A stretch of DNA of 64,000 bases from Candidatus Zhuqueibacterota bacterium (GTDB lineage Bacteria; Zhuqueibacterota; Zhuqueibacteria; Thermofontimicrobiales; Thermofontimicrobiaceae), in assembly GCA_049322915.1 (NCBI GenBank), contig JBMOPW010000010.1:32001-96000 (forward strand). The letters run 5' to 3'. Positions 1,114 through 28,762 of this stretch are shown in pieces (position 1 is the stretch's first letter; each line of letters starts with the position of its first letter). Under the pieces are notes generated by a model. That model worked only from the letters and a program-made list of their open reading frames with translations, ran no database searches and was not told where the DNA came from. A program made the translations under genes and the position numbers.

Positions 1114-4100
1114 GTGACTATGAGCGATTACTCAAAAATGATAGCATCGCTATCCCCGGAAAAACGAGCATTATTTGAAGCGCGGTTGAAGAAAAAGGGA
1201 AGCATGTACAACTCGTTCCCGGTTTCATTTTCCCAACAACGATTATGGTTCCTGGATCAGTTGGAGCCGGGAAATTCAATTTATAATATCCCGTCCGCAG
1301 TGCGATTATCCGGTGAATTGGATGTCGCCGCGTTGAAGCGGAGCGTTCACGAGTTGGTACGTCGTCATGAAATTTTGCGCACCACGTTCATGAGTGTGAA
1401 TGGCGAGCCCATGCAGATGGTGGCGCCTTCACGGCAACAGGACATGCCCATCATCGATCTGTCGCAGATGGACGAACCGCACCGCGACGCGATGATTCAG
1501 CGGCTGGCAGTGGAAGAGGCGGAGCGACCCTTCGATTTAGGCCGCGGCCCACTCCTGCGGACGTCCCTGATTCGGCTGAGCGATACCGAACACATCGCGC
1601 TGTACACTATGCACCACATCATCTCGGACGGCTGGTCCATGGGCGTGCTCATCCGCGAGATTGCTATTTTGTACGATGCCTATTCCAATAATCGGCCATC
1701 GCCGTTGCCTGATTTGCCCCTTCAGTACGCCGATTTCGCCAAATGGCAGCGACAGTGGCAGCAGGGCGAGGTGATCGAAAAGCAGCTCGACTACTGGAAG
1801 CAGCAACTCGGCGATACACCGCCGGTCCTGGAATTGCCGACTGACAGAACGCGCCCGGCAGAACAGACTTCTTCCGGCGCTGATGTGTCATTCAAATTTT
1901 CCCGCGAATTGAGCGAGCGACTGAACGACGTGAGCCGCAGAAACAGCGTGACGCTGTTCATGACGCTGCTGGCCGGATTCCAGACCCTGTTGCATCGCTA
2001 CACCCAGCAGGACGATATCGCAGTCGGCTCCCCCATTGCCAATCGAACCCGCGCCGAAACCGAAGCGCTGATCGGCTTTTTTGTCAATACATTGGTCCTG
2101 CGCAGCGATTTGTCCGGCAATCCCACGTTCAAACAGTTATTGGCGCGAGTCAGAGAAACCACGCTGGGCGCTTACGCCAATCAGGATGTGCCCTTTGAAA
2201 AACTGGTGGAAGTATTGCAGCCGGATCGCGATTTGAGCCATACACCGCTGTTTCAGGTGATGTTCATTCTTCAAAATACGCCCGTGGGCGCCTCGGAATT
2301 GCCGACCCTGTCCATGCACCCGTTGAAAATTGAAAGCCGGTCTTCCGAGTTCGACATCACGCTGTCCATGAACGAAGATCCGGAGGGACTGAGCGGCGCG
2401 TTGCAGTACAACAGCGATTTATTCAACGCCGAAACCATGTCGCGGATGCTCGTGCATTTTCAGATGCTGCTGGAACATGTCGCCATCAATCCGGATGCGA
2501 AGTTGTCGGACATTTCACTGGTTCCGGCGGCCGAGCGCCATCAACTTCTGCACGAGTGGAATGATACGAAACAGCCGTTGCCGGAGATGGCGTGCATTCA
2601 TCGCCTGTTTGAACAGACCGTAGAATCCGCGCCGGGCGCTGTGGCCGTGATGCGCGGGGACGACGTGATGACCTACCGGGAATTGAACGCGCGAGCCAAC
2701 CAATGCGCGCGCTATCTGCGCCGCCTCGGCGTTGGCGCTGATTCACTGGTGGGCATCAATCTGGATCGCTCGTTCGAGATGATCGTCGGCTTGATGGGCA
2801 TTTTGAAGGCCGGCGCCGGCTACGTGCCGCTCGATCCCAATTACCCGGCCGATCGATTGGAGTTCATGATCCGCGACGCCAGACTCTCGGTGATTCTCAC
2901 CAGACAGGCGCTCGCCGAATCGTTGCCATCCAATCAGGCGACCATTGTCCGGCTGGATTCCGACTGGAATGCGATTGCGGCGGAAAGCATGGAGAATGCG
3001 CAGGTATCGGTCGATCCGAAAAACATTGCCTACGTGATCTATACGTCCGGCTCCACCGGCAAACCCAAAGGCGTGGTCATCACGCATCAGTCCGTGGTCA
3101 ATCACAATCTGGCAGTGACCCGGTTATTCGAATTGACGCCGGCCGATCGCGTCCTGCAATTTGCTTCCATCAATTTTGATGCAGCAGTGGAAGAGATATT
3201 CCCGACGTTGCTGCGCGGCGCTGCCGTGGTCATACGGGATGGAAATGGCGTATTGCCCTCCGGAGCGGAATTGCAGAGCATGGTTCGAAAATACAACATC
3301 ACCGTTCTGGATTTGCCTACGGCCTACTGGCACGAATGGGTGTACGAACAGTCCCTGCTGAATGAGACTGCGCCGGACTCCCTGCGGCTGGTCATTGTCG
3401 GCGGCGATAAAGCCTCTGCCGAGAAGTTAATCGCTTGGCGTCGCAGCACATCTGGCCGGGTTGCCTGGATCAATACCTATGGCCCGACCGAAGCCACGGT
3501 CATTGCCACGGCGTTTGAACTGAAAAAAGATGCCGGCGATTGGGACAGCCAGGTCGAATTGCCCATCGGTTCTCCCATTCAGAATACAACGACCTACATT
3601 TTGGATTCGCATCTTCAGCCAGCGCCGGTGGGAATTCCCGGCGAGCTGTACATTGGCGGTCTGTGTCTGGCGCGCGGCTACCTGGATCGCCCCGAATTGA
3701 CTGCCGAGAAATTCATCCCGGATCCGTTCGGCGAAATTCCCGGCGCGCGGATGTACCGAACCGGGGATCTGGTTCGCTACCGGCCGGATGGCCAAATTGA
3801 GTTCATCGGTCGCGCTGATTTTCAGGTGAAAATACGCGGCTTCCGCGTGGAACTGGGCGAAGTGGAATCCGCGTTGCTGCGGCATCCGTCGGTTCGGGAA
3901 ACCATTGTCATCGTCCGCGAGGAGGCGCCGGGCGATAAACGCATGGTGGCATATTGCGCCCTGACGCCGGATGCGGCGTTGTCCGCGACGGATGTGCGCA
4001 ATTATCTGGCTGGCATATTACCGGAGTACATGGTGCCGACCGCTGTGGTGCTGCTGGAATCATTGCCCAAAACGCCAAACGGGAAAATCGACCGGCGGGC

Positions 4101-7100
4101 ATTGCCTTCGCCGGAATTTGGCCGCCCGGAATTGGAGTCCGTCTTCGTGGCGCCGAGAACGCCAGCCGAGGAATTGATCGCCGATATCTGGTCCCAGGTG
4201 CTCCATGTCCGGAAAGTGGGCGCCTTCGATAGCTTTTTCGAACTCGGCGGCCATTCGCTTCTGGCCACGCAGGTTGTGTCGCGGGTGCGCGATGTGTTCC
4301 AGGTAGAACTGCCATTGCGCAGTCTGTTCGAAAGCCCGACCGTGGCGGCGTTTGCGCAGCACATCGAACAGGCGAAAATGGCCGAAAAGGGCATTCAGGC
4401 GCCGCCCATCAGGAAAACCTCGCGGCAGCAGCCATCGCCACTCTCCTTTGCCCAGCAGCGATTGTGGTTCATGGATCAACTGGAGCCCGGCAGCGCCATG
4501 TACAACATCCCGGATGCAGTTCGACTGACCGGCGCGCTGAATGTGGATGCGCTTCAGCAGAGCCTCCGTGAAATTGTCCGTCGACATGAAATTTTGCGGA
4601 CCTCGTTTCAGACCGTGGACGGAAAAGCCACTCAGGTGATTGCTGATTCGCTGGAACTGGATTTCCCGATGATCGACCTCAGCGATCTGCCGGAGACCAT
4701 GCGCGAAGAAGAAGCCCTGAGATTGATTTTGGCCGAAGCGAAAAAGCCGTTCGATCTGGGCAAAGCGCCCATGCTGCGTACACTGCTGATCCGCCTGAGC
4801 GCCGGGGAGCATATCATTCTGCTCACCATGCATCACGTCGCGTCGGACGGCTGGTCCACCGGCGTTCTGATTCGCGAGGTGGCTGCGTTGTACGATGCGT
4901 TCTCCCACGGTCAGTCAAGCCCATTGCCGGAACTGGCGATTCATTACGCCGACTACGCTTCCTGGCAGCGCAATTGGCTCAAAGATGATGTGCTGGAAGT
5001 AGAATTGGATTACTGGAAAAAGCTGCTCAGCGATCGTCCGACGATATTGGAATTGCCCACGGATTTTTCCCGTCCGGCAGTTCAAACCTCCAATGGAGAT
5101 CACATCACCTTCACGCTGACCAAAGAATTGTCCAATCGGTTGAATGACATCAGCCGCAAGCAGGGCGCCACGCCATTCATGACGCTGTTGGCGGCGTTTC
5201 AGACGCTGCTCCATCGGTACACCGGCCAGCAGCATATCAACGTGGGAACGCCGATTGCCAATCGCACCCGCAGCGAAGCAGAGTCGCTGATCGGATTTTT
5301 TGTCAATACGCTGGTGCTGCATGCTGATTTTTCGCAGGGCATCAGTTTCAATAAATTGTTGCGGCAAGTGCGGGAAACGACTCTGGGCGCGTATGCGCAT
5401 CAGGATGTGCCCTTCGAAAAAATCGTGGATGCCATTCAGCCGGAGCGGGACATGAGCCGAACGCCGTTGTTCCAGGCCATGTTCATTTTACAAAACACGC
5501 CCAAACAATCGCTCGTGCTGGAAGGTCTGCGATTGGAAGCGATTGAACTGGACACTAAGCTTTCGACCTTTGACATCACCCTGTCGCTGGGGGAGACCGA
5601 GGCTGGGTACGCCGGCGCCATGGAATTCAACACGGATTTGTTCCGGCCGTCCACGATTCATCGGATGATTGCCCATTTCAAAAATCTCCTGCAGAGCCTG
5701 AGCGTCCAGCCGGACCTGTCTGTTTTGCGCCTGCCAATTCTCGATGAAATTGAACAGCAGCGAATACTAGTTGAATGGAATAAAACGGACGCAGCATTTC
5801 CGGATGGCGCCTGTTACCATGAATTGTTCCAAAAGCAAGTTGAGAAGACGCCGTCAGCCATTGCGCTCATTTCCGGGAATGGCGAATTGACCTACAGCGA
5901 GCTGAACGAACGCGCCAACCAATTGGCGCATCATCTGCGGAAGATCGGCGTGGGGCCGGAGAAGCTGGTCGGCATGTGCATCGAACGATCCCCGGAAATG
6001 ATCATCGGATTGCTGGCCATTCTCAAAGCAGGTGGCGGATACGTGCCGCTGGATCCTGATTATCCGGAAGAGCGGTTGACCTACATGATGACAGATTCGA
6101 AGCTATCGCATCTGCTCACCAAAAGCCATCTGGCCGCCTCATTGCCCACGCGCAACATGCACGTCATTCGTCTGGACACCGACTGGGAGCTGATTTCCCG
6201 CGAAGTGTCCACGTCAGTGATGAGCGGAGTTGCGCCGGACAATGTCGCGTACGTCATTTACACATCCGGTTCCACCGGCAAACCCAAGGGCGTGATGATC
6301 TCTCACCGGTCAGTCGTCAACCACAATTTTGCTGTGATGAACGAATTTCAGCTCACGAACCAGGATCGTGTGCTGCAATTTGCATCGATCAATTTCGATG
6401 CGGCTGTGGAAGAAATATTCCCGACTTTGTTGTGCGGCGCCACGCTGGTGCTGCGCAACAGCGATGGGGGACTCACTTCCGGCGCAGAATTACTTGAGTT
6501 GATTCGTTCGAAAAATCTGACCATGCTCGATCTGCCGACAGCGTACTGGCATGAGTGGGTCTATGAAATGACATTGCTGGAAGAGAAAATGCCATCTTCG
6601 CTGCGCCTTGTGATTGTGGGCGGAGATAAAGCCTCGCCGGAGCGACTGGCCGCCTGGCAACGCGTGGCCGGAAAGCAAGTGCGACTGCTCAATACCTACG
6701 GCCCCACTGAGGGAACAATCATTGCAACATCATTCGACCCCAATAACGAGCGCAATCCCTGGCAGCCCGGAACCGATCTGCCCATCGGCGCGCCAATCGC
6801 CAATCTCAAGACCTATGTGTTGGATGCGGCGTTACAGCCTGTGCCGGTCGGCGTCGCCGGTGAGTTGCACATCGGCGGTGCCGGCGTGGCACGCGGATAC
6901 CTTAACCGGCCGGACTTAACTGCCGATAAATTTATACCGGATCCGCACAGCAATGCGCCGGGCGCCCGTCTGTACAAAACAGGCGACCTGGTTCGTTATC
7001 GGGAAAATGGGGATATTGAATTCGTTGGGCGCGTGGATCACCAGGTCAAAATACGCGGCTTCCGCGTTGAACTCAGTGAAATCGAGTCGGTGCTGGAACG

Positions 7101-9390
7101 GCATCCGTCCCTGCGGGAAGTGGTCGTTGTAGCCCGCGAAGACGCCCAGGGTGCGAAAAAATTAGTGGCCTATTGTGTTGCCGGAAACAAGAATGAAGCT
7201 GATTCCAAAGAACAGCGCCGGCACGAGCGAGTGCCGTTCCTCAGTGAAGTCACCATCAAATTGAATGGCGATGAAAAGGCGCTCTTCAAAACCGAAGATA
7301 TTTCACCGGGCGGAGCGCGATTGCTGACCATCTCGCCCATTCCAAACTGGCAGGCGATTCAGCAGGCGCGCATGGCCATGAAGCTGCCCATTGCGCCGCA
7401 GCAAATTCATTTCAACAGCGACCTGATCTGGCAGGAAAATGGCCGCATCGGCATTGCCTTCCGCGATATGAGTCTGGACAATAAGACGCTGATCGATGAA
7501 ACGATTATTCGGCTCAAAGAGAATCAATTCGTGCTGATGAACGAGCTGCGCAATTTCCTCAAAGACAATTTGCCGGAATACATGGTGCCGTCCGCGTTCG
7601 TTATTCTGGAACGCTTGCCCCGAACTCCCAGCGGGAAAATCGACCGGAAAGCGCTGCCGGAACCGAATCAGGAGCGGGTTGAGTCCAGCAGCGCCTATGT
7701 TGAAGCGCGCGATGAAGTGGAAGAAAGCCTGACAAAAATCTGGAGCCAGGTTCTCGGCATCGGGAAAATCGGCGTCAACGATAACTTCTTTGAATTGGGC
7801 GGCGATTCCATTCTGAGCATTCAGGTCATTGCCCAGGCCAACAAAGCCGGCATTCGCCTGACGCCCAAGCAACTTTTTGAGCAGCCGACCATCGCCGGGC
7901 TGGCTTCTGTGGCTGGAAAGGGACAGGCTGTGTTTGCCGAGCAGGGCGAAGTGACTGGCGAGGTCCCGTTGACTCCAATCCAAAAATGGTTCTTCGATTT
8001 GAAACTGCCGGAATCGCATCACTGGAATCAGTCGGTGCTCTTTGAGATAGAACAGCATCTCAAACCGAACGCGCTCAGGATGGTCATTAAGAGCGTGATC
8101 GAACATCACGATGCGCTGCGATTCCGTTACGCCGGGCTGAATGATGCGATCAGGCAGCATATCGCGGCGAACGAAGAATCTGTGCCGTTCTCTATTGTCG
8201 ACTTGTCCGCGCTGCCGGAGACTGAATTGCAACGCGCTATTGAATCCGTTGCCGCGTCGGTTCAGCAGAGCCTGAATCTGGAATTCGGGCCAATCATTCG
8301 CGCGGCGCTGTTCCATCTGGGTGACAGCAAACCGCAACGGCTGCTCATTGTGGCGCATCACCTGGCCATCGACGGGGTGAGTTGGAGAATCCTGCTCGAA
8401 GACGTGATGACGTCGTATCAGCAATTTGAACGACTCGGCAGAATTCAGTTGCCGCAGAAAACAACCTCGTTCAAGTACTGGGCGGAGCAACTGTCGCGCC
8501 ATGCCCGGACGCCGGAATTGGAAAAGGAACTGGAGTACTGGCTGGAAATTGGCAAGCAACCCATTGCACCGCTGAAGACCGATTTCACTGCCGGAAAGAA
8601 CACCGAAGCCTCTGCCGGCAACATCGCTGTATCGCTGACCGAAGCGGAGACAAAGAAGCTATTGAAGGACGTGCCGGCTGTCTATCGGACGCAGATCAAT
8701 GATATTCTGTTGACGGCGCTGGCGCAGACATTCGGCGGCTGGATGAACTCCCGCAGTGTGCTGGTGGAGATGGAGGGACATGGCCGCGAGGACCTGTTCG
8801 GAAACGTGGATATCTCCCGAACCCTCGGCTGGTTCACCACGGTCTACCCTGTGCTGCTGAATCTGGGCGTGAGCCGGTCCATTGGCGACGAGATAAAAAA
8901 CATCAAAGAACAATTGCGAAAACTGCCGAATCACGGAATTGGATTCGGGCTGTTGAAATACATGGCTGAGAAGAGCGAAGTGACCAGCGCGCTTCGGACG
9001 TTGCCGGAGCCGCAGATCAGCTTCAACTATTTGGGACAATTCGATCAGGCCGGGACGAATGCCGGCGCTTTCAAAGGGGCGAAAGAATCCAGCGGGCCGG
9101 ATCATAGCCCAATGGGGGAGCGGAGCCATTTCATCGAGATCAATGGCAGTGTGGCCGGTTCCCGGTTGCAACTGGACTGGACCTACAGCGAAAATATTCA
9201 TGCGCGCGCCACGATCGAGCGGCTGGCGTATGATTTCATCGCCAGGTTGAAGGCCATCATCGCGCACTGCGAGAATCCCAATGCGGGCGGCGTGACGCCT
9301 TCGGATTTTCCATTGGCCAATCTCAAGCAGAAAGATCTCAATAAGGTGCTGAACAAGCTTAACAAAACCAAGGAAAAACGTGCATTATGA
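1114..9390 (+). CDS. NRPS 1: C-A-T-C-A(PilZ-interrupted)-T-E-COM (modules 1-2 in window)
   Basis: C motifs HHIISDGWS and HHVASDGWS; two sets of A motifs (YTSGSTGKPKG, YGPTE, TGDL, KIRGFRVEL); T motifs GGHSL and GGDSI; epimerase motifs HHLAIDGVSW and EGHGRE; C-terminal TPSDF. Start is GTG 1114 or ATG 1120. Confidence 0.97.
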   Translation: MTMSDYSKMIASLSPEKRALFEARLKKKGSMYNSFPVSFSQQRLWFLDQLEPGNSIYNIPSAVRLSGELDVAALKRSVHELVRRHEILRTTFMSVNGEPMQMVAPSRQQDMPIIDLSQMDEPHRDAMIQRLAVEEAERPFDLGRGPLLRTSLIRLSDTEHIALYTMHHIISDGWSMGVLIREIAILYDAYSNNRPSPLPDLPLQYADFAKWQRQWQQGEVIEKQLDYWKQQLGDTPPVLELPTDRTRPAEQTSSGADVSFKFSRELSERLNDVSRRNSVTLFMTLLAGFQTLLHRYTQQDDIAVGSPIANRTRAETEALIGFFVNTLVLRSDLSGNPTFKQLLARVRETTLGAYANQDVPFEKLVEVLQPDRDLSHTPLFQVMFILQNTPVGASELPTLSMHPLKIESRSSEFDITLSMNEDPEGLSGALQYNSDLFNAETMSRMLVHFQMLLEHVAINPDAKLSDISLVPAAERHQLLHEWNDTKQPLPEMACIHRLFEQTVESAPGAVAVMRGDDVMTYRELNARANQCARYLRRLGVGADSLVGINLDRSFEMIVGLMGILKAGAGYVPLDPNYPADRLEFMIRDARLSVILTRQALAESLPSNQATIVRLDSDWNAIAAESMENAQVSVDPKNIAYVIYTSGSTGKPKGVVITHQSVVNHNLAVTRLFELTPADRVLQFASINFDAAVEEIFPTLLRGAAVVIRDGNGVLPSGAELQSMVRKYNITVLDLPTAYWHEWVYEQSLLNETAPDSLRLVIVGGDKASAEKLIAWRRSTSGRVAWINTYGPTEATVIATAFELKKDAGDWDSQVELPIGSPIQNTTTYILDSHLQPAPVGIPGELYIGGLCLARGYLDRPELTAEKFIPDPFGEIPGARMYRTGDLVRYRPDGQIEFIGRADFQVKIRGFRVELGEVESALLRHPSVRETIVIVREEAPGDKRMVAYCALTPDAALSATDVRNYLAGILPEYMVPTAVVLLESLPKTPNGKIDRRALPSPEFGRPELESVFVAPRTPAEELIADIWSQVLHVRKVGAFDSFFELGGHSLLATQVVSRVRDVFQVELPLRSLFESPTVAAFAQHIEQAKMAEKGIQAPPIRKTSRQQPSPLSFAQQRLWFMDQLEPGSAMYNIPDAVRLTGALNVDALQQSLREIVRRHEILRTSFQTVDGKATQVIADSLELDFPMIDLSDLPETMREEEALRLILAEAKKPFDLGKAPMLRTLLIRLSAGEHIILLTMHHVASDGWSTGVLIREVAALYDAFSHGQSSPLPELAIHYADYASWQRNWLKDDVLEVELDYWKKLLSDRPTILELPTDFSRPAVQTSNGDHITFTLTKELSNRLNDISRKQGATPFMTLLAAFQTLLHRYTGQQHINVGTPIANRTRSEAESLIGFFVNTLVLHADFSQGISFNKLLRQVRETTLGAYAHQDVPFEKIVDAIQPERDMSRTPLFQAMFILQNTPKQSLVLEGLRLEAIELDTKLSTFDITLSLGETEAGYAGAMEFNTDLFRPSTIHRMIAHFKNLLQSLSVQPDLSVLRLPILDEIEQQRILVEWNKTDAAFPDGACYHELFQKQVEKTPSAIALISGNGELTYSELNERANQLAHHLRKIGVGPEKLVGMCIERSPEMIIGLLAILKAGGGYVPLDPDYPEERLTYMMTDSKLSHLLTKSHLAASLPTRNMHVIRLDTDWELISREVSTSVMSGVAPDNVAYVIYTSGSTGKPKGVMISHRSVVNHNFAVMNEFQLTNQDRVLQFASINFDAAVEEIFPTLLCGATLVLRNSDGGLTSGAELLELIRSKNLTMLDLPTAYWHEWVYEMTLLEEKMPSSLRLVIVGGDKASPERLAAWQRVAGKQVRLLNTYGPTEGTIIATSFDPNNERNPWQPGTDLPIGAPIANLKTYVLDAALQPVPVGVAGELHIGGAGVARGYLNRPDLTADKFIPDPHSNAPGARLYKTGDLVRYRENGDIEFVGRVDHQVKIRGFRVELSEIESVLERHPSLREVVVVAREDAQGAKKLVAYCVAGNKNEADSKEQRRHERVPFLSEVTIKLNGDEKALFKTEDISPGGARLLTISPIPNWQAIQQARMAMKLPIAPQQIHFNSDLIWQENGRIGIAFRDMSLDNKTLIDETIIRLKENQFVLMNELRNFLKDNLPEYMVPSAFVILERLPRTPSGKIDRKALPEPNQERVESSSAYVEARDEVEESLTKIWSQVLGIGKIGVNDNFFELGGDSILSIQVIAQANKAGIRLTPKQLFEQPTIAGLASVAGKGQAVFAEQGEVTGEVPLTPIQKWFFDLKLPESHHWNQSVLFEIEQHLKPNALRMVIKSVIEHHDALRFRYAGLNDAIRQHIAANEESVPFSIVDLSALPETELQRAIESVAASVQQSLNLEFGPIIRAALFHLGDSKPQRLLIVAHHLAIDGVSWRILLEDVMTSYQQFERLGRIQLPQKTTSFKYWAEQLSRHARTPELEKELEYWLEIGKQPIAPLKTDFTAGKNTEASAGNIAVSLTEAETKKLLKDVPAVYRTQINDILLTALAQTFGGWMNSRSVLVEMEGHGREDLFGNVDISRTLGWFTTVYPVLLNLGVSRSIGDEIKNIKEQLRKLPNHGIGFGLLKYMAEKSEVTSALRTLPEPQISFNYLGQFDQAGTNAGAFKGAKESSGPDHSPMGERSHFIEINGSVAGSRLQLDWTYSENIHARATIERLAYDFIARLKAIIAHCENPNAGGVTPSDFPLANLKQKDLNKVLNKLNKTKEKRAL
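7180..7542 (+). other. PilZ-like (c-di-GMP-binding) domain inserted in the adenylation domain of module 2
   Basis: There are 121 aa between LVAYCV and ELRNFL, against 10-12 aa in the other modules. The segment contains QRRHER (RxxxR, 7216-7230), DISPGG (DxSxxG, 7297-7314) and a later GIAF strand (7450-7461). Confidence 0.88.
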
Positions 9391-12300
9391 GTATGGAGAA
9401 CATTGAGGATATCTATCCGCTTTCACCCATGCAGCAGGGAATGCTATTTCATAGTATTTATGCGCCAGAATCCGGTGAATACATTGAACAGATGAGTTGC
9501 AAAATAGACGGACAGTTAGATGTCACGGCATTTGAACGGGCATGGCAGGAGGTATTGAACCGACATACAATTTTACGAACGGCTTTTGTGTGGGAAGACC
9601 TGGATGAACCTTTGCAGGTGGTTCAGTCCGGACTGGAACTGAAAGTGAATCAATTGGGTTGGCGCACAATGGCCGAGGCTGAAATTGCCGAACGCCTGCA
9701 CCAGTTCCTCGAAACCGACCGCAAACAAGGCTTTGATCTGTCAGAAGCGCCGTTGATGCGCGTGACGCTGATTCAACGGTCGGATGATGTTTTTCAATTT
9801 GTGTGGACGCATCATCATCTGTTATTGGATGGATGGTCGGTGCCTCTGTTGCTTGGGGAAGTCTTCGCGTTCTACGATGGATTTCATACCGGTCAGCCGG
9901 TGAATCGCGCAACCAGCCGACCGTATCGCGATTACATCGCCTGGTTGCAGCAGCAGGATCTGTCCCGGGCAGAGGCCTACTGGCGCGAACGACTGAGCGG
10001 ATTCGTCGCTCCCACCAGTCCGGCGCTGGACGTTCGCTCCGATGGCCCGGAATCCGATGAAGACTATTGTCTGGAGCAGGACAGGCTCTCCGAGACGGTG
10101 ACAGATGCGCTTCAGAATTTATCGCGGACGCACCAGATCACGCTGAATACGTTCATGCAGGGCGCCTGGGCGCTGCTGCTGAGCCATTACAGCGGGGAAG
10201 ATGACGTGGTGTTCGGGATGACCGTCTCCGGCCGACCGCCGGAACTGCTGGACTCGGTCAGCATGCTGGGTATCTTCATCAACACGCTGCCAATTCGCGC
10301 ACTGGTGACGCCGGAGTCGAAGCTGCTGCCGTGGTTGAATGAGTTGCAGAAACAGCAGAGCGAGCTGCGCCAGTTCGAATACAGCGCCCTGACACAGATT
10401 CAGGGGTGGAGCCAGGTGCCGCGCGAACTGCCTCTGTTCGAAAGCATTTTCGTCTTTGAAAATTATCCGGTGGAAGAAGCGATGAAGGAGGACAACTCCA
10501 GCGTCCATATCACGGACGTGGAATCGTTCACCCGGACCAATTTGCCAATCACGGTCTCGGTTTCGCCCGGGAAACGGGTGGGCATTGAAATTTTATACGA
10601 CCACACGCGATTCAGCACCGCGGCCATCAAACGGCTGATGGGTCACATGAAGCATCTGCTGGGCGAAATGGCAGCCAATCCCAATCGCGCGCTATCCAGC
10701 CTGTCCGTTTTGACGGACGCTGAGAAAAAGCAGCTTCTGGTGGACTGGAATAATACAGATACAAAGCTGCCTGACGTGCAGTGCGTTCACCAATGGATCG
10801 AGCAGCAGGTGGAAAAAACTCCCAACGCCATCGCGGTGACCTGTTCCGGGGAGCATCTGACCTATCAGGAATTGAATGAAAGAGCCAATCAATTGGCGCA
10901 CTACCTGATCGGTCTGGGCGTTGGCCCGGAGGTGATGGTCGGAGTGATGATGGAACATTCGCTCGGCATGATGGTCGGGCTCCTGGGAATCCTCAAAGCC
11001 AGCGGCGCGTACGTGCCCATGGATCCGTATTATCCCAAAGATCGCATTGAATATATTTTGACTGATTCGCGAATCCCTGTGCTATTGACCCAGCGGAAAC
11101 TGCTGGAACTATTGCCGGAAACAGGCGTGCGAATTTTGCAACTGGACGAAGAGTGGGACTCCGTGAGCCGGGAAGCACGAACATCACCAGCCGTTTCCGT
11201 GAACCGCGAAAACCTGGTCTATATGATTTACACGTCCGGCTCGACTGGCAAACCCAAGGGAACGTTGATCACTCACCGCGGTCTGATCAATTATTTGCAC
11301 TGGTGCCTGGCCAATTACCCCATCGAGGCCGGAAGCGGCTCTCTGGTTCATTCATCCCTGGCATTCGACGCAACGGTGACCGGGCTGTTTGCGCCGCTTC
11401 TCACCGGCCGCACTGTCACCCTGGTGTCCGAGACAAAGGACGTCGAGATTTTGAGCAGCATGTTGCAGTCGACGGACAATTACAGTCTCATCAAAATTAC
11501 GCCGGCGCATCTGGAATTATTGGGCCAGCAACTGGAAGCGGACGCAGCAAAGGACAAAACCCGGGCATTCATCATTGGCGGTGAAAATCTCACCTCTGAG
11601 CATATCGAGTTCTGGAAAAAGCATGCCCCGGAGACCCGGTTGATCAACGAATACGGCCCCACGGAGACCGTTGTCGGGTGTATGAATTACGTCGCTGATC
11701 CGCGGAACGGGCGCCGCGGTTCCATTCCCATTGGATACCCGATCTGCAACACGAAAATCTACCTGCTGGACTCGCAGTTACAGCCGGTCCCGATCGGCGT
11801 TCCTGGCGAGCTGTATATTGGCGGTGAAGGCGTGGCGCGCGGTTATCACAATCGCCCGGACCTCACAGCAGCGCGGTTCATCCCTTCTCCGTTCAGCAAC
11901 AAGCCCGGCGCGCGGTTGTACCGGAGCGGCGATCTGGCGCGTTATCTGGGAAATGGGAATATCGAGTTTCTAGGTCGAATCGACCATCAGGTGAAGATTC
12001 GCGGCTTCCGCATCGAATTGGGTGAAATCGAGGAAAATCTGAACCAGCATCCGGCCGTTCAGAATGCTGTGGCGCTGGTGCGGGAAGACAAACCCGGGGA
12101 CAAGCGACTGGTCGCGTATTTTGTGCCCAATCGGAGCGCCGAAGCATCGCCGTCGACGAACGAATTGCGCGACTTCCTCGCCGCGAGATTGCCGCATTAC
12201 ATGATTCCTAATTTCTTCGTGATGCTGGAAAACATGCCGCTCACTTCCAATGGAAAAGTGAACCGCAAAGCGCTGCCGGCGCCGGAGCTGGATCGTTCCG

Positions 12301-15300
12301 GCGGTATGGAATTTATCGCGCCGCGCACACCGACCGAAGAACTGATGGCGCAAATCTGGGCCGAAGTTCTGGGAATCGAACAGGTCGGCATTTACGATAA
12401 CTTTTTCGAATTGGGCGGTCATTCGCTCATCGGTATGAAATTGCAAAGCCGCGTCCAGGATGCCTTCCAGATGAAGTTGCCGTTGAGCAGCATTTTCCAG
12501 GCGCCGACGGTGGCTGAATTGGCGCAGCGCATTGACAGCGAAAAGACAACCGCGGCGCGCACCGATGCGCCGCCCATCGTCCCGGTCAGCAGAGACCAGC
12601 AGTTGCCGTTGTCCTTTGCCCAGCATCGGCTGTGGTTCCTCGATCAATTGGAGCCGAACAGCGCGTTTTACAATATCCCCACAGCGTTGCGCTTCAAAGG
12701 AAAATTGAATGTCCCGGCGCTGGAAAAAAGTTTCGCCGGGATCATCACCCGGCACGAGTCGCTGCGCACGACGTTTCAGGCATTCGATGGAAAACCATTC
12801 CAGGTGATTGCAGCGGAACTGCCGCCTCCTGTCGAGCACATCGATTTTCGTCATCATCCGGAATCCGAGAAAGAGGATCTCCTTCACAAGTTGGTGTACA
12901 AAGAAGCGCAGACGCCGTTCGATCTGAGCGCCGGTCCGCTGGTGCGCATGAAAATCGCTCAGTTGAGCGAGGATGAATTTGCCATCCTGGTCACCATGCA
13001 TCACATCATTTCGGATGGCTGGTCCATCACTGTCTTCATTCAGGAAATGGCCGCGCTCTACGAGGCGTTCAGCGCCGGGGGCGAATCGCCGCTGCCGTCG
13101 CTTACTATCCAATATCCTGATTTCGCACACTGGCAGCGACAATGGCTGCAAGGGGCTGTGCTGGATGCGCAGATTTCCTTCTGGAAAGAACAACTGGCCG
13201 GGTGCCCGCCGATTCTGGAATTGCCAACGGATCGTCCGCGGCCGGCCGTGCAAAGCTTCAATGGCGCCACGCTCAGTCAATTCCTGTCCGGCGCAACTCT
13301 CGATGCATTGAAAAAACTGAGCAGGGAACAAGGCTGCACCCTGTTCATCACGCTGCTGGCAGCGTTCAAAACATTGCTGCACCGCTACAGCGGCCAGACC
13401 GATATTTGCGTGGGAACGCCCATTGCCAGTCGCAACAATGTGGAAACTGAAAAGCTGATTGGCTTCTTCGTCAACACGCTGGTGATGCGATCCGACCTGT
13501 CAGACGATCCTACATTCCTGGAATTCATGCGCCACGTGCGCGAGACTGCGCTGGACGCCTACGCCCATCAGGATGTGCCATTCGAGACTGTTGTGGAAGC
13601 AGTTCAGCCGGAGCGCAACATGAGCCATTCGCCGTTATTCCAGGTGATGTTCGTGCTCCAGGAAGCGCGAAAGGCCAGCATGGAACTGTCTGATGTAACC
13701 ATCACTGCGCTGCAAACCGACAGCGGCAATGCGAAATTCGATTTGACCCTGGAAGTGCTGGAAGGCGCTGATCAGATGGAATTGTCGTTCGAATACAATA
13801 CCGATTTATTCAATGCCGAGACCATTGAACGTATGGCCGCGCATTTTGCTCATCTGGTGGAATCCATCGTCGCCGATCCGGAGCAGCGGCTCTCAGCGCT
13901 GCCGATTTTATCCGAAGCTGAGAAACACCGCATGTTGATCGAGTGGAACCAAACAGCCGCAGCGTATCCGGATCAGAGCTGCGTTCACGAGGTATTCCAG
14001 CAACTGGCCGGGACCAATCCCGATGCCGTTGCAGCAACCTACGAAGCCGCGTCGCTGACCTACGGGGAACTGAATAAGAAAGCCAATCAATTGGCGCGCA
14101 ATCTGCTGGCCAGCGGACTGAAGCCCGAACAGTTCGTGGGCATTTGCATGGAACGGTCGCTAGATATGGTGGTCGGCATTCTGGCCACGTTGAAAGCCGG
14201 CGGTGCGTTTGTGCCGCTCGATCCGGCCTATCCCTCGGAACGGCTGGCGTACATGATTTCGGATTCCCGGTTGACCATTTTACTGAGCCAGGAAAGGCTC
14301 AAACCTGCGCTGCCAGAGAATAGCGCCCGCACAATTTTTCTGGACAGCCAAGGCGCGGAGGTCTTTCAGGGCGACGATTCGAATGTGAACCTCCCCATTG
14401 TCCCGGAAAATCTGGCCTACATGATTTATACATCCGGTTCCACCGGCAAACCCAAAGGAACCATGTTGCAGCACCGCGGTATGTGCAATCTGGCCCAAGC
14501 CCAGCAACGGGCATTCGATGTCACGATTGGCAGCCGCATCTTACAATTCTCGTCGCTGAGTTTCGATGCATCCGTCTGGGAAACCGTGATGGCGTTGCTG
14601 AACGGCAGCACGCTCTGCCTCACCCAGCGCGAACATCTGGCTTCAGGCCAGGCGTTGTGGCAGGTGCTGCGCGAAGAGAAAATCAACACTGTGACGCTGC
14701 CGCCGTCCGTCGCTGTCATTATCCCGGACGAGCCCCTGCCGGATTTGAAAGTCATCATTACGGCAGGCGAAAAATGCACGGCGGAGCTGGTTTCAAAATG
14801 GTCGAATAATGGCAGAAAATTTTTCAACGCCTATGGCCCAACGGAAACAACCGTGTGCGCTTCCATGCTGCACGTTGCCAGGCATTATCGCCAGGGCCCG
14901 CCCATTGGACGGCCGATTCACAATTTCCAGCTCTACATTCTCGATCCGAAATTGAATCCGACGCCGGTCGGCGTGGCCGGGGAATTGCACATCGGCGGTG
15001 TGGGATTGGCGCGCGGTTATTTCAATCGGCCGGATTTGACAGCCGAAAAATTTATCGCGGATCCTTTCAACAGGACTCCCGGTGCGCGGATGTACAAGAG
15101 CGGCGATCTGGCGCGCTTCCTGCCTGATGGCAATATCGAATTCCTGGGTCGAATCGATCACCAGGTGAAAGTCCGCGGCTTCCGCATTGAATTGGGTGAA
15201 ATAGAAGCGGTCCTCGCCGCCCATCCGGACATCACCGATGTGGTTGTGCTGGTGCGGGAAGATATGCCCGGGGACAAGCGGCTGGTGGCCTATCTCGTCG

Positions 15301-15800
15301 TTGGCCAGGGCAAAGACCTGACCGTCGGCGATTTGCGAGGCTACCTGCGCGAGCGGCTGCCGGATTATATGATTCCTTCAGCATTCATGATTTTGAATGA
15401 ATTCCCATTGACGCCCAATGGCAAAGTCGACCGCAAAGCGCTGCCGGCTCCGGACCAGTCCCGTCCGGAATTAGGCAGCGAATATGTCGCGCCGGGCACG
15501 GAGCACGAGATAAAGCTAGCGGCTATTGTCGCGGAATTGCTCAAAGTGGAAAAAGTGGGCATACATGATAATTTCTTTGATCTGGGCGGGCATTCGCTTC
15601 TGGCCACGCAATTCATCTCCCGAACGCGGGATGCGTTCCAGGTGGAATTGCCTCTGCGAAGCCTGTTCGAAAAACCGACCGTCGCCGGTCTGGTCGAAGA
15701 AATTGAGAAGGTCAAATTAGCCGGGCCGGTGCAGGCTGGACCATCGATTAAGCGGGTGGCTCGGGACGCGCATCGCGTGAAACTATCGGAATTGAACTGA
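9387..15800 (+). CDS. NRPS 2: C(DCL-type)-A-T-C-A-T (modules 3-4)
   Basis: N-terminal IEDIYPLSPMQQGMLFH and HHLLLDGWS are typical of a C domain following an E domain. Second C motif HHIISDGWS; two A domains; two GGHSL T domains. ATGA overlap with the NRPS 1 stop. Confidence 0.97.
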   Translation: MSMENIEDIYPLSPMQQGMLFHSIYAPESGEYIEQMSCKIDGQLDVTAFERAWQEVLNRHTILRTAFVWEDLDEPLQVVQSGLELKVNQLGWRTMAEAEIAERLHQFLETDRKQGFDLSEAPLMRVTLIQRSDDVFQFVWTHHHLLLDGWSVPLLLGEVFAFYDGFHTGQPVNRATSRPYRDYIAWLQQQDLSRAEAYWRERLSGFVAPTSPALDVRSDGPESDEDYCLEQDRLSETVTDALQNLSRTHQITLNTFMQGAWALLLSHYSGEDDVVFGMTVSGRPPELLDSVSMLGIFINTLPIRALVTPESKLLPWLNELQKQQSELRQFEYSALTQIQGWSQVPRELPLFESIFVFENYPVEEAMKEDNSSVHITDVESFTRTNLPITVSVSPGKRVGIEILYDHTRFSTAAIKRLMGHMKHLLGEMAANPNRALSSLSVLTDAEKKQLLVDWNNTDTKLPDVQCVHQWIEQQVEKTPNAIAVTCSGEHLTYQELNERANQLAHYLIGLGVGPEVMVGVMMEHSLGMMVGLLGILKASGAYVPMDPYYPKDRIEYILTDSRIPVLLTQRKLLELLPETGVRILQLDEEWDSVSREARTSPAVSVNRENLVYMIYTSGSTGKPKGTLITHRGLINYLHWCLANYPIEAGSGSLVHSSLAFDATVTGLFAPLLTGRTVTLVSETKDVEILSSMLQSTDNYSLIKITPAHLELLGQQLEADAAKDKTRAFIIGGENLTSEHIEFWKKHAPETRLINEYGPTETVVGCMNYVADPRNGRRGSIPIGYPICNTKIYLLDSQLQPVPIGVPGELYIGGEGVARGYHNRPDLTAARFIPSPFSNKPGARLYRSGDLARYLGNGNIEFLGRIDHQVKIRGFRIELGEIEENLNQHPAVQNAVALVREDKPGDKRLVAYFVPNRSAEASPSTNELRDFLAARLPHYMIPNFFVMLENMPLTSNGKVNRKALPAPELDRSGGMEFIAPRTPTEELMAQIWAEVLGIEQVGIYDNFFELGGHSLIGMKLQSRVQDAFQMKLPLSSIFQAPTVAELAQRIDSEKTTAARTDAPPIVPVSRDQQLPLSFAQHRLWFLDQLEPNSAFYNIPTALRFKGKLNVPALEKSFAGIITRHESLRTTFQAFDGKPFQVIAAELPPPVEHIDFRHHPESEKEDLLHKLVYKEAQTPFDLSAGPLVRMKIAQLSEDEFAILVTMHHIISDGWSITVFIQEMAALYEAFSAGGESPLPSLTIQYPDFAHWQRQWLQGAVLDAQISFWKEQLAGCPPILELPTDRPRPAVQSFNGATLSQFLSGATLDALKKLSREQGCTLFITLLAAFKTLLHRYSGQTDICVGTPIASRNNVETEKLIGFFVNTLVMRSDLSDDPTFLEFMRHVRETALDAYAHQDVPFETVVEAVQPERNMSHSPLFQVMFVLQEARKASMELSDVTITALQTDSGNAKFDLTLEVLEGADQMELSFEYNTDLFNAETIERMAAHFAHLVESIVADPEQRLSALPILSEAEKHRMLIEWNQTAAAYPDQSCVHEVFQQLAGTNPDAVAATYEAASLTYGELNKKANQLARNLLASGLKPEQFVGICMERSLDMVVGILATLKAGGAFVPLDPAYPSERLAYMISDSRLTILLSQERLKPALPENSARTIFLDSQGAEVFQGDDSNVNLPIVPENLAYMIYTSGSTGKPKGTMLQHRGMCNLAQAQQRAFDVTIGSRILQFSSLSFDASVWETVMALLNGSTLCLTQREHLASGQALWQVLREEKINTVTLPPSVAVIIPDEPLPDLKVIITAGEKCTAELVSKWSNNGRKFFNAYGPTETTVCASMLHVARHYRQGPPIGRPIHNFQLYILDPKLNPTPVGVAGELHIGGVGLARGYFNRPDLTAEKFIADPFNRTPGARMYKSGDLARFLPDGNIEFLGRIDHQVKVRGFRIELGEIEAVLAAHPDITDVVVLVREDMPGDKRLVAYLVVGQGKDLTVGDLRGYLRERLPDYMIPSAFMILNEFPLTPNGKVDRKALPAPDQSRPELGSEYVAPGTEHEIKLAAIVAELLKVEKVGIHDNFFDLGGHSLLATQFISRTRDAFQVELPLRSLFEKPTVAGLVEEIEKVKLAGPVQAGPSIKRVARDAHRVKLSELN

Positions 15801-15953
15801 TCGACGCATGGGACTTCTGATTTGGCGATTTGCGCGATGACTATGATGAAAATAGAAATGAAGTCCTCATCGGATAAAAGATGGATCAGCGGCAAGAGCC
15901 AGGGCTGCTGAATTTCGTAGCACGCATACTCCAAAAGGTGACTGGAAAATACG

Positions 15954-18900
15954 ATGACAGAGCAGATGTACCAGAAATATGAAGAGGATGTGTTTGTATT
16001 TCCTGCTTCGTACGCGCAGCAGCGATTATGGTTTTTGGATCAATTTGAGCCGAACAGCCCTTTTTACAACATTCCTTCAGCCATTCGGTTCAAGGGCGAA
16101 TTGAATAGTGAGGCGCTGGAAAAGGGCATTCAGGAGATCGTTGCCCGACACGAGACATTGCGAACAACCTTTGCCGCCGTGGGTGGAAAACCGATGCAGG
16201 TCATCCACCCGACGCTGACGCTGCCGGTGACGCGCATCGATTTGCGCCGCAATGCCGAGGCTGAACGACTGGACAGAGCCGCGCAGTTGGCGCGGGAAGA
16301 GGCGAGACGGCCGTTCAATCTCTCAACCGGGCCCCTTGTTCGCGTGACGCTGCTGGAGTTGGATGACAATGACCATGTCGTACTGTTGACCATGCATCAT
16401 ATCATTTCCGACGGTTGGTCCATGGGCGTGCTGATTCGGGAAATGGCCATTCTGTACAATGCGTTTTCTCACGACCGACCTTCGCCATTGCCGGAACTGG
16501 AGATACAATACGCCGACTACGCTGAATGGCAGCAGCAATATCTCACCGGCGACGTGCTGGAAAATCAATTGAATTATTGGAAACAGCAGTTGGGCGATGG
16601 GCTGTCCGTGCTGGAACTTCCGACCGATCGGCCCCGTCCTCTGGTTCAATCATCCCGCGGCTCGGTCGAGACGCTGCTGATTCCGAAATCCGTGAATGAC
16701 CGGTTGAATGAATTGGCCAAAAAGCACGGCGCCACGCTGTTCATGTCGCTGCTGGCCGGCTTTCAGGTCCTGCTCTATCGCTATAGCGGGCAGCAGGACT
16801 TCTGCATCGGATCCCCCATTGCCAATCGCAATCGCTCGGAGATCGAAGGGCTCATCGGATTTTTCGTGAACACCATTGTCCTGCGGTCTCGCGTGAGCGC
16901 GGAGATGAGTTACACTGAATTGCTGAAATTGGCCAAAGAAACAACGCTGGGCGCCTATGCGCATCAGGATGTGCCGTTCGAAAAACTTGTGGAAGCCTTG
17001 CAGCCGGAACGGGATACCAGTCACACCCCGCTGTTTCAGGTGATGTTTTCGCTCCAGAACACATCCACCGATGTGAACGTGGCAATGCCACAGGTGCATC
17101 TGAGCACGCTGGACGTTGACGCCGGCACAGCCACGTTCGATATTTCCCTGCTGATGGCCGAAGAAGCTGCCGGCCTGAGCGCCTCCATTGAGTACAATAC
17201 CGACCTGTTCGACGCGGCGACTATTCAGCGCATGCTCAATCATTTTCACATCATCCTGCAGACAGCAGTGGATCAGCCTGAATTGTCCCTGTCCAAAATA
17301 AATCTGCTCACTTCGGAAGAACAGCGGCAGATACTCAAAACGTGGAATCAAACCGAGGAAACATTCACCGGACCCTTCACCCTGCACGAGCGGTTAGAAC
17401 ACCAGGCAGCGCGAACTCCGGAATCGGTTGCGGTGATTTACGAATCAGAACACCTGACGTACAAAGAATTGAATGAAAGAGCTAACAGGTTCGCGCGTTA
17501 TTTGCAGACCCTGGGCGCTGCGCCGGAGACTGTTGTCGGCGTCAGCGTGGAACGGTCGCTGAATATGGTTGTGGCCCTGTTCGGGATACTTAAAACCGGG
17601 GCGGCCTATTTGCCGCTGGATCCCAACTATCCCCGAGAACGTCTGGCCCTGATGCTGGAAGACTCCGGCGCGCCCATCCTTGTGACGCAGAAGCATTTGT
17701 ACGAGCAATTCGCGGACGTCACCTGTCAGGTTGTGTGCATTGATGCGGCATTGAATAAATTCGCCGATCTGGATGCGTCGGATCTGAATATCCCGGTCGA
17801 TCCGAAGAACATGGCCTATTGCATTTATACGTCCGGCTCAACCGGCAAGCCCAAAGGCGTCATGCTCACTCACAGTTCGGCGGTGAATCATAATTTTTCC
17901 ATCAGCCAGCTTTTCAGACTCAGTCCGGATGACCATGTCCTGCAATTCGCCACGATTAATTTTGATGCGGCGGTAGAGGAAATTTTCCCGACACTGGCCA
18001 TCGGCGCCACGCTTGTAGTGCGTAACAATGACATCCTGATTTCCGGAGCGGATCTGCTCCGACTCATCGATAAAGAGCGACTGACTGTGCTGGATCTGCC
18101 CACCGCCTACTGGCACGAGTGGGTGACGGAACTCGCTCGTTCCAAAATAACGCTGCCGGAATCGCTGCGACTGGTCATCCTGGGCGGGGACAAAGCGTCG
18201 CCGGAGCGATTTCTCACCTGGAAAAAATTGGGCGGAAATCGAGTCAGCCTGGTGAACACCTACGGCCCTACGGAGACCACGGTGGTGTCCACAATGTACG
18301 AACCGTGCGCTGCGGAAAATAACACAACTGATCTGATTGAATTGCCGATTGGCCGTCCCATTGCCAATACAAAAATTTACATTCTGGATGCCTCGATGCA
18401 GCCCGTCCCGGTGGGTGTCCCCGGTGAACTGTACATTGGCGGTCACGGTCTGGCGCGCGGTTATTTGCAACGCCCGGAACTGACGGCTGAAAAGTTTGTC
18501 CCTGATCCATTCAGCAACAATGTCGGCGCGCGTCTCTACCGAACCGGCGATCTGGTGAGGTACCGTCCCGATGGCATGATCGAGTTTTCGGGCCGCGTCG
18601 ATTTTCAATTGAAAATTCGCGGTTTCCGCGTTGAGATCGGAGAGGTGGAATCCGCGCTCCGAAAGAACACCCGCATTCAGGACGTTGCCGTCATCGCCAC
18701 AGCCGGAGAGACAGCATCCAGCGAGAAACGGCTGGTGGCCTATTGCGCATGCCTGCCGGAAGATGAAGTGACGCCGTCTGAACTACGCGATTTTCTCAAA
18801 GCGCATTTGCCTGAATACATGATCCCGTCGCTGTTCGTCATGATGGAAGAATTGCCAAAGACGCCGAACGGAAAACTGGATCGCAAGGCCCTGCCGGATC

Positions 18901-27730: not shown

Positions 27731-27852
27731 CGTAGATTCGTCGGGTATCCGAAGTAGAAATGACGAAATGAAATTACGCAATCAGGTCGGTTCGGTTGTA
27801 ATATACTGTGGCTTCCGCGTCGGGGGGATGAATTTTTCTGGAGGAAAAACCA

Positions 27853-28167
27853 GTGTCAGCGTATTGTAAAGCATATCAACTATCGGCATTGCGTCAATTC
27901 CCCGGCTGGATGGAGCAAAGAACATCGGGCGAACCCGTCGCACAGGATGGCAGCGGGAAGAATTCGATATCGGACCAACTGCGGGAAACAGATTATCTGT
28001 TTTTGCACGATAGCTATGTGGTGACGAACGGAATTTTCGAGGATAAAAATATCGTATTCGATCGGGTGACGCCGGAATGGAAAAAGTTCTGTCAGATAGA
28101 GCTGCAGTTCAATATTCCCGGCGACGATGCCGATAGACCCGGAGACAATCATCGGGTGAAAATTTAA
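27853..28167 (+). CDS. Small hypothetical protein within the NRPS cluster
   Basis: GAGGA RBS before the GTG start; co-oriented with the cluster; protein-like sequence (YCKAY..LRQF.GW; YLFLHDSYVVT.GIF.D; EWKKFC). Confidence 0.75.
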   Translation: MSAYCKAYQLSALRQFPGWMEQRTSGEPVAQDGSGKNSISDQLRETDYLFLHDSYVVTNGIFEDKNIVFDRVTPEWKKFCQIELQFNIPGDDADRPGDNHRVKI

Positions 28168-28480
28168 TAATACAACCTGTAATTCTAAATTAATTTGTTC
28201 AGCGCCGGTCTTCAAATACCAAATAGCGATTAGATACCAATAATCAAAGAGATAAATACAGAACTCAAGCAAAACATGATAGCATGGTTTAAGTGAGCAG
28301 CGGTTTGAAAATTGAAATTTTGGTATTGTTATTTATTTGTGGTTTAGAAATTGTTTTTTGGAATTTTCAGAATTCCAATTTAGAAATTCAGATACAATTT
28401 TAAGTAATGGGGCGCGGGTGAAGGTGTTGCTATGGACATACACCTGAAAAAATTGGGAACACTAAAATAGAGGTGACAAA

Positions 28481-28699
28481 ATGAACAGAGAAGAAAGAGA
28501 AGATACCACGATTTACAAAGTTGTTATCAATCATGAAGAGCAATATTCGATCTGGCCAGCGGACAGGGATAATCCACTTGGCTGGAAAGATGCTGGCAAG
28601 ACCGGCTTGAAGGCGGAGTGTCTCGAATACATTAAAGAAGTCTGGACTGATATGCGTCCGCTCAGCCTGCGAAAAAAAATGGAGGCAATGGGTAATTAG
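28481..28699 (+). CDS. mbtH: MbtH-like protein
   Basis: Signature [13 protein letters not shown]...P.GW...[17 protein letters not shown] with the three conserved Trp residues. Confidence 0.98.
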
Positions 28700-28732
28700 C
28701 CAGCCGTTTCTCCTGCAATGTTTAACTTTTTC

Positions 28733-28762
28733 CAAGGGGACTATCATTCGATAGTCCCCTTG
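28733..28762 (+). terminator. Perfect 13-bp stem-loop after mbtH (terminator or mRNA-stabilising hairpin)
   Basis: CAAGGGGACTATC-ATTC-GATAGTCCCCTTG, with no U-tract after it. Confidence 0.5.

Follow-up and report, generated by a model that had tools for sequence, protein, structure and literature searches.

The output of nonribosomal peptide synthetases (NRPSs) is known to be controlled mostly at the level of transcription and, in addition, through MbtH partners and phosphopantetheinylation. MbtH-like proteins are separate small proteins that bind the core of adenylation (A) domains, and ligand sensing is not known for them. A domains may also be interrupted by other domains, as in TioS with its A-M-A structure. 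Among the receptors for cyclic diguanosine monophosphate (c-di-GMP), the PilZ domain of BcsA is a C-terminal fusion that acts on the gating loop of a glycosyltransferase, and YcgR-type receptors, the targets of which are flagellar motors, carry an RxxxR motif in the linker between two barrels. According to the preprint survey by Galperin and Chou (10.1101/814665), the canonical PilZ domain is a six-stranded barrel with a C-terminal helix and the two motifs RxxxR and [D/N]hSxxG. Here, we describe a 64,000-nucleotide stretch of DNA from a Candidatus Zhuqueibacterota bacterium (the window), in which an NRPS gene carries, between motifs A8 and A9 of its second A domain, an in-frame insert that, judged by sequence and predicted fold, is a true canonical PilZ domain. 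We establish the family, predicted fold, motifs, insertion site and conservation of this insert as well as the capacity of the genome to make and break c-di-GMP, and we weigh the proposal that the insert gates the loading of its module.

Translation of the second module leads from the A-subdomain strand KKLVAYCVAG through the in-frame insert to NELRNFLKDNLPEYMVP and on to PSGKIDRK. From A8 to A9, module 2 measures 174 aa, as compared with 63-65 aa in five of the six other A domains of the window (the sixth escaped the pattern), and the net insert thus amounts to about 110 aa. The host domain is intact, as all ten core motifs A1-A10 were found by pattern search. An earlier note on this DNA, made from the letters alone, had described an in-frame stretch of 121 aa between A8 and A9, an RxxxR motif at aa 2035-2039 that is followed after 22 residues (RRHER to DISPGG) by DxSxxG at aa 2062-2067, and an intact A9 motif and A10 lysine further downstream; translation and pattern searches bear out all of these statements and place A9 and A10 at aa 2153 and 2169. 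The architecture is that of an a8-a9 interrupted A domain, with a foreign domain in frame and motifs a1-a10 kept; the foreign domain is a PilZ receptor domain and not the catalytic portion of a tailoring domain. The gene and its module 2, with thiolation (T), condensation (C) and epimerization (E) domains, contain the following features:

1114..9390, forward strand: NRPS gene 1, 2758 aa, C-A-T-C-A[PilZ]-T-E (list of open reading frames; Pfam Condensation three times, AMP-binding twice, PP-binding twice, PilZ)
5827..6903, forward strand: adenylation core of module 2, aa 1572-1930, motifs A1-A7 intact (Pfam AMP-binding; pattern search)
7027..7071, forward strand: A8 motif GRVDHQVKIRGFRVE, aa 1972-1986, hinge of the mobile C-terminal subdomain (pattern search)
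7180..7542, forward strand: 121-aa stretch, aa 2023-2143, with N-terminal linker, six-stranded barrel and C-terminal helix (translation, Pfam, AlphaFold2 model)
7210..7500, forward strand: Pfam PilZ match, aa 2033-2129, profile positions 1-98 of 102 (whole-protein scan, 40.5 bits)
7216..7230, forward strand: RxxxR motif RRHER, aa 2035-2039, in the linker between A-subdomain strand and barrel (pattern search)
7297..7314, forward strand: [D/N]hSxxG motif DISPGG, aa 2062-2067, h being Ile (pattern search)
7474..7521, forward strand: predicted C-terminal helix of PilZ, model helix 161-176 (AlphaFold2 model)
7570..7590, forward strand: A9 motif LPEYMVP, aa 2153-2159 (pattern search)
7618..7647, forward strand: A10 motif PRTPSGKIDR with the catalytic Lys, aa 2169-2178 (pattern search)
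7726..7896, forward strand: T2 carrier domain (PP-binding) of the GGDSI type (Pfam; pattern search)
7921..9387, forward strand: epimerization domain, the third condensation-family domain, HHLAIDG at aa 2415, start approximate (Pfam; pattern search)

Assignment of the insert to the PilZ family, as the earlier note had proposed, rests on a match to PF07238 in a 141-aa piece (window 7150-7572) with 46.6 bits and E 4.6e-12 over profile positions 1-98 of 102; the curated cut-off is 22.5 bits, and by its score the match is far beyond chance. No family other than PilZ matched this piece in Pfam at E up to 10. When a 340-aa piece was compared with Pfam, AMP-binding_C was found split in two around the insert, followed by PP-binding.

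The predicted structure agrees with this assignment. An AlphaFold2 model of 318 aa (window 6994-7947), calculated from a 30-row alignment (A1), reached a mean predicted local distance difference test score (pLDDT) of 85.5 and a predicted template modeling score (pTM) of 0.64, a value at which the relative placement of the domains is uncertain. Within the insert, strands are predicted at model residues 85-90, 94-103, 107-112, 125-130, 137-148 and 151-157, followed by helix 161-176, which is nearly continuous with helix 178-192 of the A subdomain. PilZ N-termini show disorder-to-order behavior, and it fits this behavior that confidence inside the insert is lowest for residues 71-80 (pLDDT 65), the linker that bears RxxxR. 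In a Foldseek comparison with the PDB, the model matched NRPS A-T structures best (LgrA, 5es8_B, E 1e-13) and then c-di-GMP-bound MapZ (5xly_B, target TM 0.71) and a cellulose-synthase PilZ domain (4i86_A, 0.75); BcsA (9b8v_E, 9fnn_A) and PlzA (7mie) were also among the matches. A search of PDB chains with the insert sequence gave no PilZ match, only a chance match to Axin (E 0.063), so that the relation to solved PilZ structures shows at the fold level only. All four features of the canonical PilZ domain named in the PilZ survey (10.1101/814665) are present in the insert, the fold by prediction only.

The insert is conserved among relatives. When the source genome (G000) and 60 relatives were searched, it was present in 6 of the 61 genomes, all from the source organism's own family, f1. 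Carriers account for 6 of the 14 genomes of this family, namely the source and five of the 13 others, from four genera, at 27-81% identity. Each copy from a relative lies inside an open frame of 1260-2893 aa, and two genomes (G008 and G013) contain a pair of copies in successive modules of a single frame, with about 3.5 kb between them. The eight f1 copies all lie between an (L/M)xAYC strand and an LR...LP(E/D)YM helix and all retain RxxxR; DhSxxG is present in seven, the eighth reading ExSxxG. An alignment of 13 rows (A2), made up of the f1 copies, the insert of a Calothrix NRPS (see below) and four free-standing PilZ proteins, is invariant at the second Arg of RxxxR and the Pro that follows it, at the Ser and Gly of the second motif, and at a P, W, G and F of the barrel, and near-invariant at the first Arg of RxxxR and the D of the second motif. 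Between G000 and G001, the ratio of nonsynonymous to synonymous substitution rates (dN/dS) is 0.10 for the insert, 0.09 for the A core and 0.13 for the downstream part, ratios that are rough because dS is saturated (1.2-1.8). As judged from these sequences, the insert is under purifying selection. A word-seeded protein search (1516-4827 aa) yielded 65 candidates, three of which carry the insert, namely the protein encoded in the window itself and a further two, each of 2756 aa, with inserts that are 95% and 80% identical. For all three, a PF07238 hit is precomputed, and domain databases thus already record it. Recent horizontal insertion was considered and rejected in view of the ordinary GC content at third codon positions (GC3) of the insert, which lies at the 27th percentile for the gene, together with its presence in four genera. 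As a separate observation, the module-2 insert of the window is nearer to the module-1 copy of G008 and G013 (45-46% identity) than to their module-2 copy (27-28%), and the downstream T-E of the window gene corresponds to module 2 of the G008/G013 orthologue (L080/L083, G008:C135; L081/L084, G013:C30), a mismatch that suggests recombination of A-PilZ units within the gene.

The architecture of AMP-binding, PilZ and PP-binding recurs in family f1, in cyanobacteria and in other NRPS and polyketide synthase (PKS)-NRPS proteins, and this recurrence in other lineages goes beyond what the earlier note knew. A HMMER search with the insert alone against 1.84 billion representatives returned 20 matches at E <=1e-3, none of them below 1e-10. 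Ten of the 20 are longer than 1000 aa, and nine of these ten are NRPSs or PKS-NRPSs in which AMP-binding and PP-binding are separated by two PilZ stretches. Eight of these nine have both barrels in tandem within one a8-a9 loop, and a further match of 171 aa (P0020) is a fragment of this kind. A 2837-aa NRPS of Calothrix sp. NIES-4105 (AP018290.1; L085:114-8627) has a single PilZ domain (30.5 bits) that splits AMP-binding_C. In a sample of 401 evenly drawn cyanobacterial genomes, 38 matched the A2 profile at E up to 1e-5, and in 20 of them (about 5% of the sample) the open frame that holds the match is 1122-3700 aa long. Nineteen of these 20 genomes supplied 20 regions for closer analysis; the regions comprise 25 such A domains, and in every one the a8-a9 distance is 166-272 aa. 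DhSxxG is kept by almost all cyanobacterial single-barrel inserts, and the second barrels of tandem inserts carry RxxxR in 7 of 11 cases by the strict pattern. In a quick maximum-likelihood tree of 68 domains and 115 columns, rooted at the midpoint and with groupings that are weak, the f1 inserts stand with free-standing canonical PilZ domains (Shimodaira-Hasegawa-like approximate likelihood ratio test, SH-aLRT, 93) and apart from the cyanobacterial-type inserts (93). This hints at a separate origin, on sequence grounds, of the f1 inserts and the cyanobacterial inserts lacking RxxxR that are taken up below, and separate origins would mean that this loop acquired PilZ barrels on more than one occasion.

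Fourteen loci with a long A8-A10 distance, picked by eye from 76 in a genome-contig scan, contain no PilZ match at E up to 0.1. At three loci, L005:10001-10420, L029:6846-7250 and L055:10001-10345, AMP-binding_C is split by short a8-a9 inserts for which Pfam gave no match up to E 0.1; the hosts are a Streptomyces, a Herpetosiphonaceae and a Chloroflexota genome. In the Calothrix NRPS, the PilZ domain of which lacks RxxxR and resides in the second A domain, an FkbM-type methyltransferase (PF05050, aa 835-1024) follows the first AMP-binding match. Fusion of PilZ to an unrelated partner was observed in Corallococcus carmarthensis (L086:2-3445, reverse strand), where an N-terminal PilZ is joined to Hsp70/DnaK, and the title of a publication on Myxococcus refers to two PilZ-DnaK chaperones (PMC10313047).

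The source genome comprises 6.25 Mb in 45 contigs and is 96% complete; PF00124 was not found in it, which shows that the organism is not an oxygenic cyanobacterium. The NRPS insert is the sole match to PF07238 in this genome at E up to 0.001, a statement that covers this family only, with MshEN, I-sites and other receptor classes lying outside it and divergent PilZ-like barrels possibly escaping it. GGDEF is matched six times, four of the matches being strong (166-178 bits), and each of these four has an intact GGEEF. Five HD_5 (HD-GYP-type) matches and no EAL match were found in the genome, and breakdown of c-di-GMP therefore appears to rely on HD-GYP enzymes. Among the nine PilZ matches of the five related carriers, seven are NRPS-embedded; those of G001, G009 and G013 are exclusively so, and each of the five genomes has two to four strong GGDEF matches. 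Across 167 species genomes of the phylum, which is a small one, the A2 profile (E up to 1e-6) matched three further genomes, each with a free-standing protein of 124-131 aa. Since Pfam recognizes PilZ in this cyclase-containing genome in the NRPS copy alone, the lineage offers a simple system in which to ask what a minimal c-di-GMP network controls.

On this basis, the insert probably binds c-di-GMP through R2035/R2039 and D2062/S2064/G2067. The best full explanation that we can offer, plausible yet tentative, is that the PilZ insert gates the loading of module 2 in response to c-di-GMP. Binding of c-di-GMP would order the N-terminal linker of about 20 residues that bears RxxxR, and the ordered linker would lock the orientation of the barrel against the A subdomain, to which the C-terminal end of the barrel would already be rigidly joined by the nearly continuous helix; taken as a whole, this ordering of the linker and fixing of the barrel is a possible but still conjectural course of events. 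A barrel fixed in this manner would alter the rotation of the subdomain between the adenylation and thiolation positions, or the docking of T2, and the c-di-GMP level would thereby govern, in a post-translational manner, the loading of module 2 and with it the output of the entire multi-gene assembly line. The direction of the effect, on or off, is not readable from the sequence. A wider reading, according to which c-di-GMP acts directly on the NRPS line via a receptor in the rotating lid and the NRPS is the main PilZ output of the lineage, is conceivable but rather doubtful; in G000, G001, G009 and G013 the NRPS would be the only PilZ output, and GGEEF and HD-GYP-type domains were checked in G000 only. 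If this were true, the PilZ arm of the c-di-GMP signal would control the synthesis of secondary metabolites and not motility or exopolysaccharide.

Several observations weigh against gating by c-di-GMP. The AlphaFold2 model is ligand-free, and its pTM renders the relative domain placement uncertain. No GGDEF, EAL or HD_5 match is present on the 138-kb contig of the cluster (C10), and no c-di-GMP riboswitch was found at the Rfam gathering threshold in the window and 19 kb upstream (L087). In addition to the roughness of the dN/dS ratios, constraint is not uniform, because the second copies of G008 and G013 have diverged to 42% identity versus 79-82% in their flanks, with a dN/dS of 0.42 and, in one of them, E in place of D. 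All 23 single-barrel inserts of the inspected cyanobacterial loci (L085, L092-L111) read xxxxER(I/V/T)P, such that the first Arg of RxxxR is gone, and the first barrels of tandem inserts (three in cyanobacterial loci, eight in database proteins) are also devoid of it. The retention of such barrels indicates that PilZ at A8-A9 can be kept for a reason other than binding of c-di-GMP, and their occurrence in other lineages weakens the claim that the insert always senses this ligand. The inserts without RxxxR and the relaxed constraint on the second copies are also what would be expected of a structural or vestigial insert, which is tolerated in a permissive loop or stabilizes the module or mediates oligomerization and senses nothing, and the A8-A9 loop does take many inserts, among them the methyltransferase families treated in PMC8341866 and the short inserts of L005, L029 and L055. 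However, all eight f1 copies, at 27-81% identity, keep both motifs (with a single D-to-E exchange), the R, S and G of the motifs are among the invariant columns of A2, and dN/dS is 0.10, so that a purely structural or vestigial role appears unlikely for the f1 inserts.

Similar doubt applies to a c-di-GMP-dependent adaptor, in which PilZ would recruit a partner or place the megasynthetase at the membrane, an exporter or a tailoring enzyme and leave catalysis unchanged. Among PilZ structures, the best match is 5xly_B, a complex of MapZ with CheR1, and MapZ is just such a ligand-dependent single-domain adaptor; the ligand motifs of the insert are intact and conserved, and the major facilitator superfamily (MFS) exporter, the sulfotransferases and the carnitine-acyltransferase-like protein of the cluster could be partners; but this explanation points to no specific partner, and simple tethering does not require that PilZ be nested within the mobile subdomain, in the very loop where catalytic inserts reside, since a terminal fusion would suffice. 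We therefore consider an adaptor improbable. That the domain responds to a ligand other than c-di-GMP, for example another cyclic dinucleotide or pGpG, would be in keeping with a genome that lacks EAL and has five HD-GYP-type domains. We know of no canonical PilZ domain with another natural ligand. The PilZ survey (10.1101/814665) gives RxxxR and [D/N]hSxxG as the motifs for c-di-GMP in the canonical domain, and a different ligand is accordingly very unlikely. Finally, the metagenome-type source might raise the suspicion that an assembly chimera or a sequencing artefact joined a PilZ gene into the NRPS frame, all the more as the sole contig that spans both junctions (zero differences over the whole stretch) originates from run X1, a possible source of the assembly and hence non-independent. 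The earlier note had proposed mapping reads across both junctions: the 3' junction is crossed by a 266-base contig from another study (X3), which covers 7426-7691 with six differences, and the 5' junction is spanned by the X1 contig only, as no independent contig from X2, X3 or X4, all of them short, crosses it. No RNA dataset is listed as holding the stretch. Yet the same in-frame architecture occurs in five other genomes of four genera and in two protein records of 2756 aa, and the GC3 of the insert is ordinary; these orthologues refute a chimeric assembly, which the earlier note had named as fatal to its domain call, for practical purposes. Gating of module 2 by c-di-GMP remains, of the explanations considered, the one that we prefer.

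Neither the substrate of the module nor epimerization appears to account for the insert. The FDAAVEEI/NTYGPTE pocket type of module 2, which has the insert, recurs without an insert in module 1 and in the module that opens the third NRPS, and the A4/A5 pocket motifs vary among the cyanobacterial A domains that bear PilZ. The insert is thus not tied to the substrate, and a regulatory or structural role of a general kind is favored over tailoring. Tailoring of the substrate by the insert was itself rejected, as there is no match to a catalytic family and the pocket motifs of the carriers vary. Module 2 is a C-A-T-E elongation module composed of Condensation, AMP-binding, a GGDSI-type PP-binding domain and a condensation-family E domain. 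GGDSI-type T domains precede E domains. Pfam and pattern searches of the window identified the GGDSI signature in T2 alone and a third condensation-family domain only in NRPS1, and module 2 is consequently the sole epimerizing module in the window, as had been noted before. The further suggestion of a functional tie between the PilZ switch and epimerization is not supported: the copy of G008 and G013 that is closest to the insert belongs to a module that continues with T-C and not T-E.

The remainder of the assembly line lies downstream of gene 1:

9387..26366, forward strand: two further NRPS genes of the same assembly line, C-A-T-C-A-T and C-A-T-C-A-T-C-A-T-TE, TE being thioesterase (Pfam)
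26444..31495, forward strand: accessory genes for an MFS exporter, a type II thioesterase, a phosphopantetheinyl transferase and a sulfotransferase (Pfam)

The cluster extends upstream of the window, with NRPS genes of 2983 aa and 2155 aa and the carnitine-acyltransferase-like gene. The latter encodes a 598-aa protein of the choline/carnitine O-acyltransferase family (PF00755, 139 bits), a family that is uncommon in bacterial NRPS clusters, and stands between the NRPS genes of the cluster (window 2-1054; in full, L087:17259-19055). A Sulfotransfer_3 domain (PF13469, 84.6 bits) is embedded between modules of the upstream 2983-aa NRPS (aa 1149-1364, L087:866-9817), an unusual position for an NRPS, and the stand-alone sulfotransferase is encoded at window 30266-31495; the product of the cluster may be a sulfated peptide. 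Two frames that adjoin the cluster, window 32808-33617 (forward strand, 269 aa) and 35450-36742 (forward strand, 430 aa), have no Pfam match at E <=1e-5.

Should gating by c-di-GMP prove true, a ligand-sensing domain within the catalytic cycle would represent a new layer of post-translational control for NRPSs, and natural-product assembly lines would join the targets of c-di-GMP. Raising or lowering c-di-GMP could then wake silent clusters, and ligand-switchable modules could be engineered. The proposal lends itself to testing, because the design recurs and module 1, with the same pocket motifs and without an insert, is a natural control.

The earlier note knew of no sensory insert of this kind, and our literature searches agree: judged by titles and abstracts, no account of a PilZ domain inside an NRPS adenylation domain was found, subscription-only papers and supplements lying outside the search. 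Neither 'PilZ' nor 'c-di-GMP' occurs in the main text of PMC8341866, and the terms 'synthetase', 'adenylation', 'nonribosomal', 'non-ribosomal', 'polyketide' and 'inserted' are all absent from the PilZ survey (10.1101/814665). To the PilZ inserts of other NRPSs the window adds a single-barrel version in which both ligand motifs are intact and which is conserved across a family where it is the main or only PilZ.

The closest described systems each share part of this arrangement. The a8-a9 interrupted A domains (Lundy, Mori and Garneau-Tsodikova 2020, PMC8341866) likewise contain a foreign domain in frame in the mobile subdomain and keep the ten motifs; whereas the families treated in that article hold catalytic inserts, the insert of the window is a non-catalytic ligand receptor and falls outside the seven families described there. 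With BcsA, the locus shares a PilZ domain that is covalently part of a processive biosynthetic enzyme, and the proposed logic, by which c-di-GMP would set the output of polymer, is the same; the difference is that the PilZ domain of the window is nested inside the rotating subdomain of an adenylate-forming enzyme. MapZ (PA4608), among the closest structural matches, resembles the insert in its one canonical barrel with a C-terminal helix and an N-terminal RxxxR arm, but is free-standing and acts in trans on CheR1. YcgR, PlzD and PlzA are two-barrel receptors, and their layout is copied by the tandem inserts found in other NRPSs, in which a degenerate first barrel, a linker with RxxxR and a canonical second barrel follow one another; the insert of the window consists of a single barrel, and the place of the first one is taken by the A subdomain, to which it is connected by the RxxxR-bearing linker. 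The insert is finally comparable to MbtH-like proteins, which are non-catalytic modulators of NRPS adenylation activity as the PilZ domain of module 2 would be.

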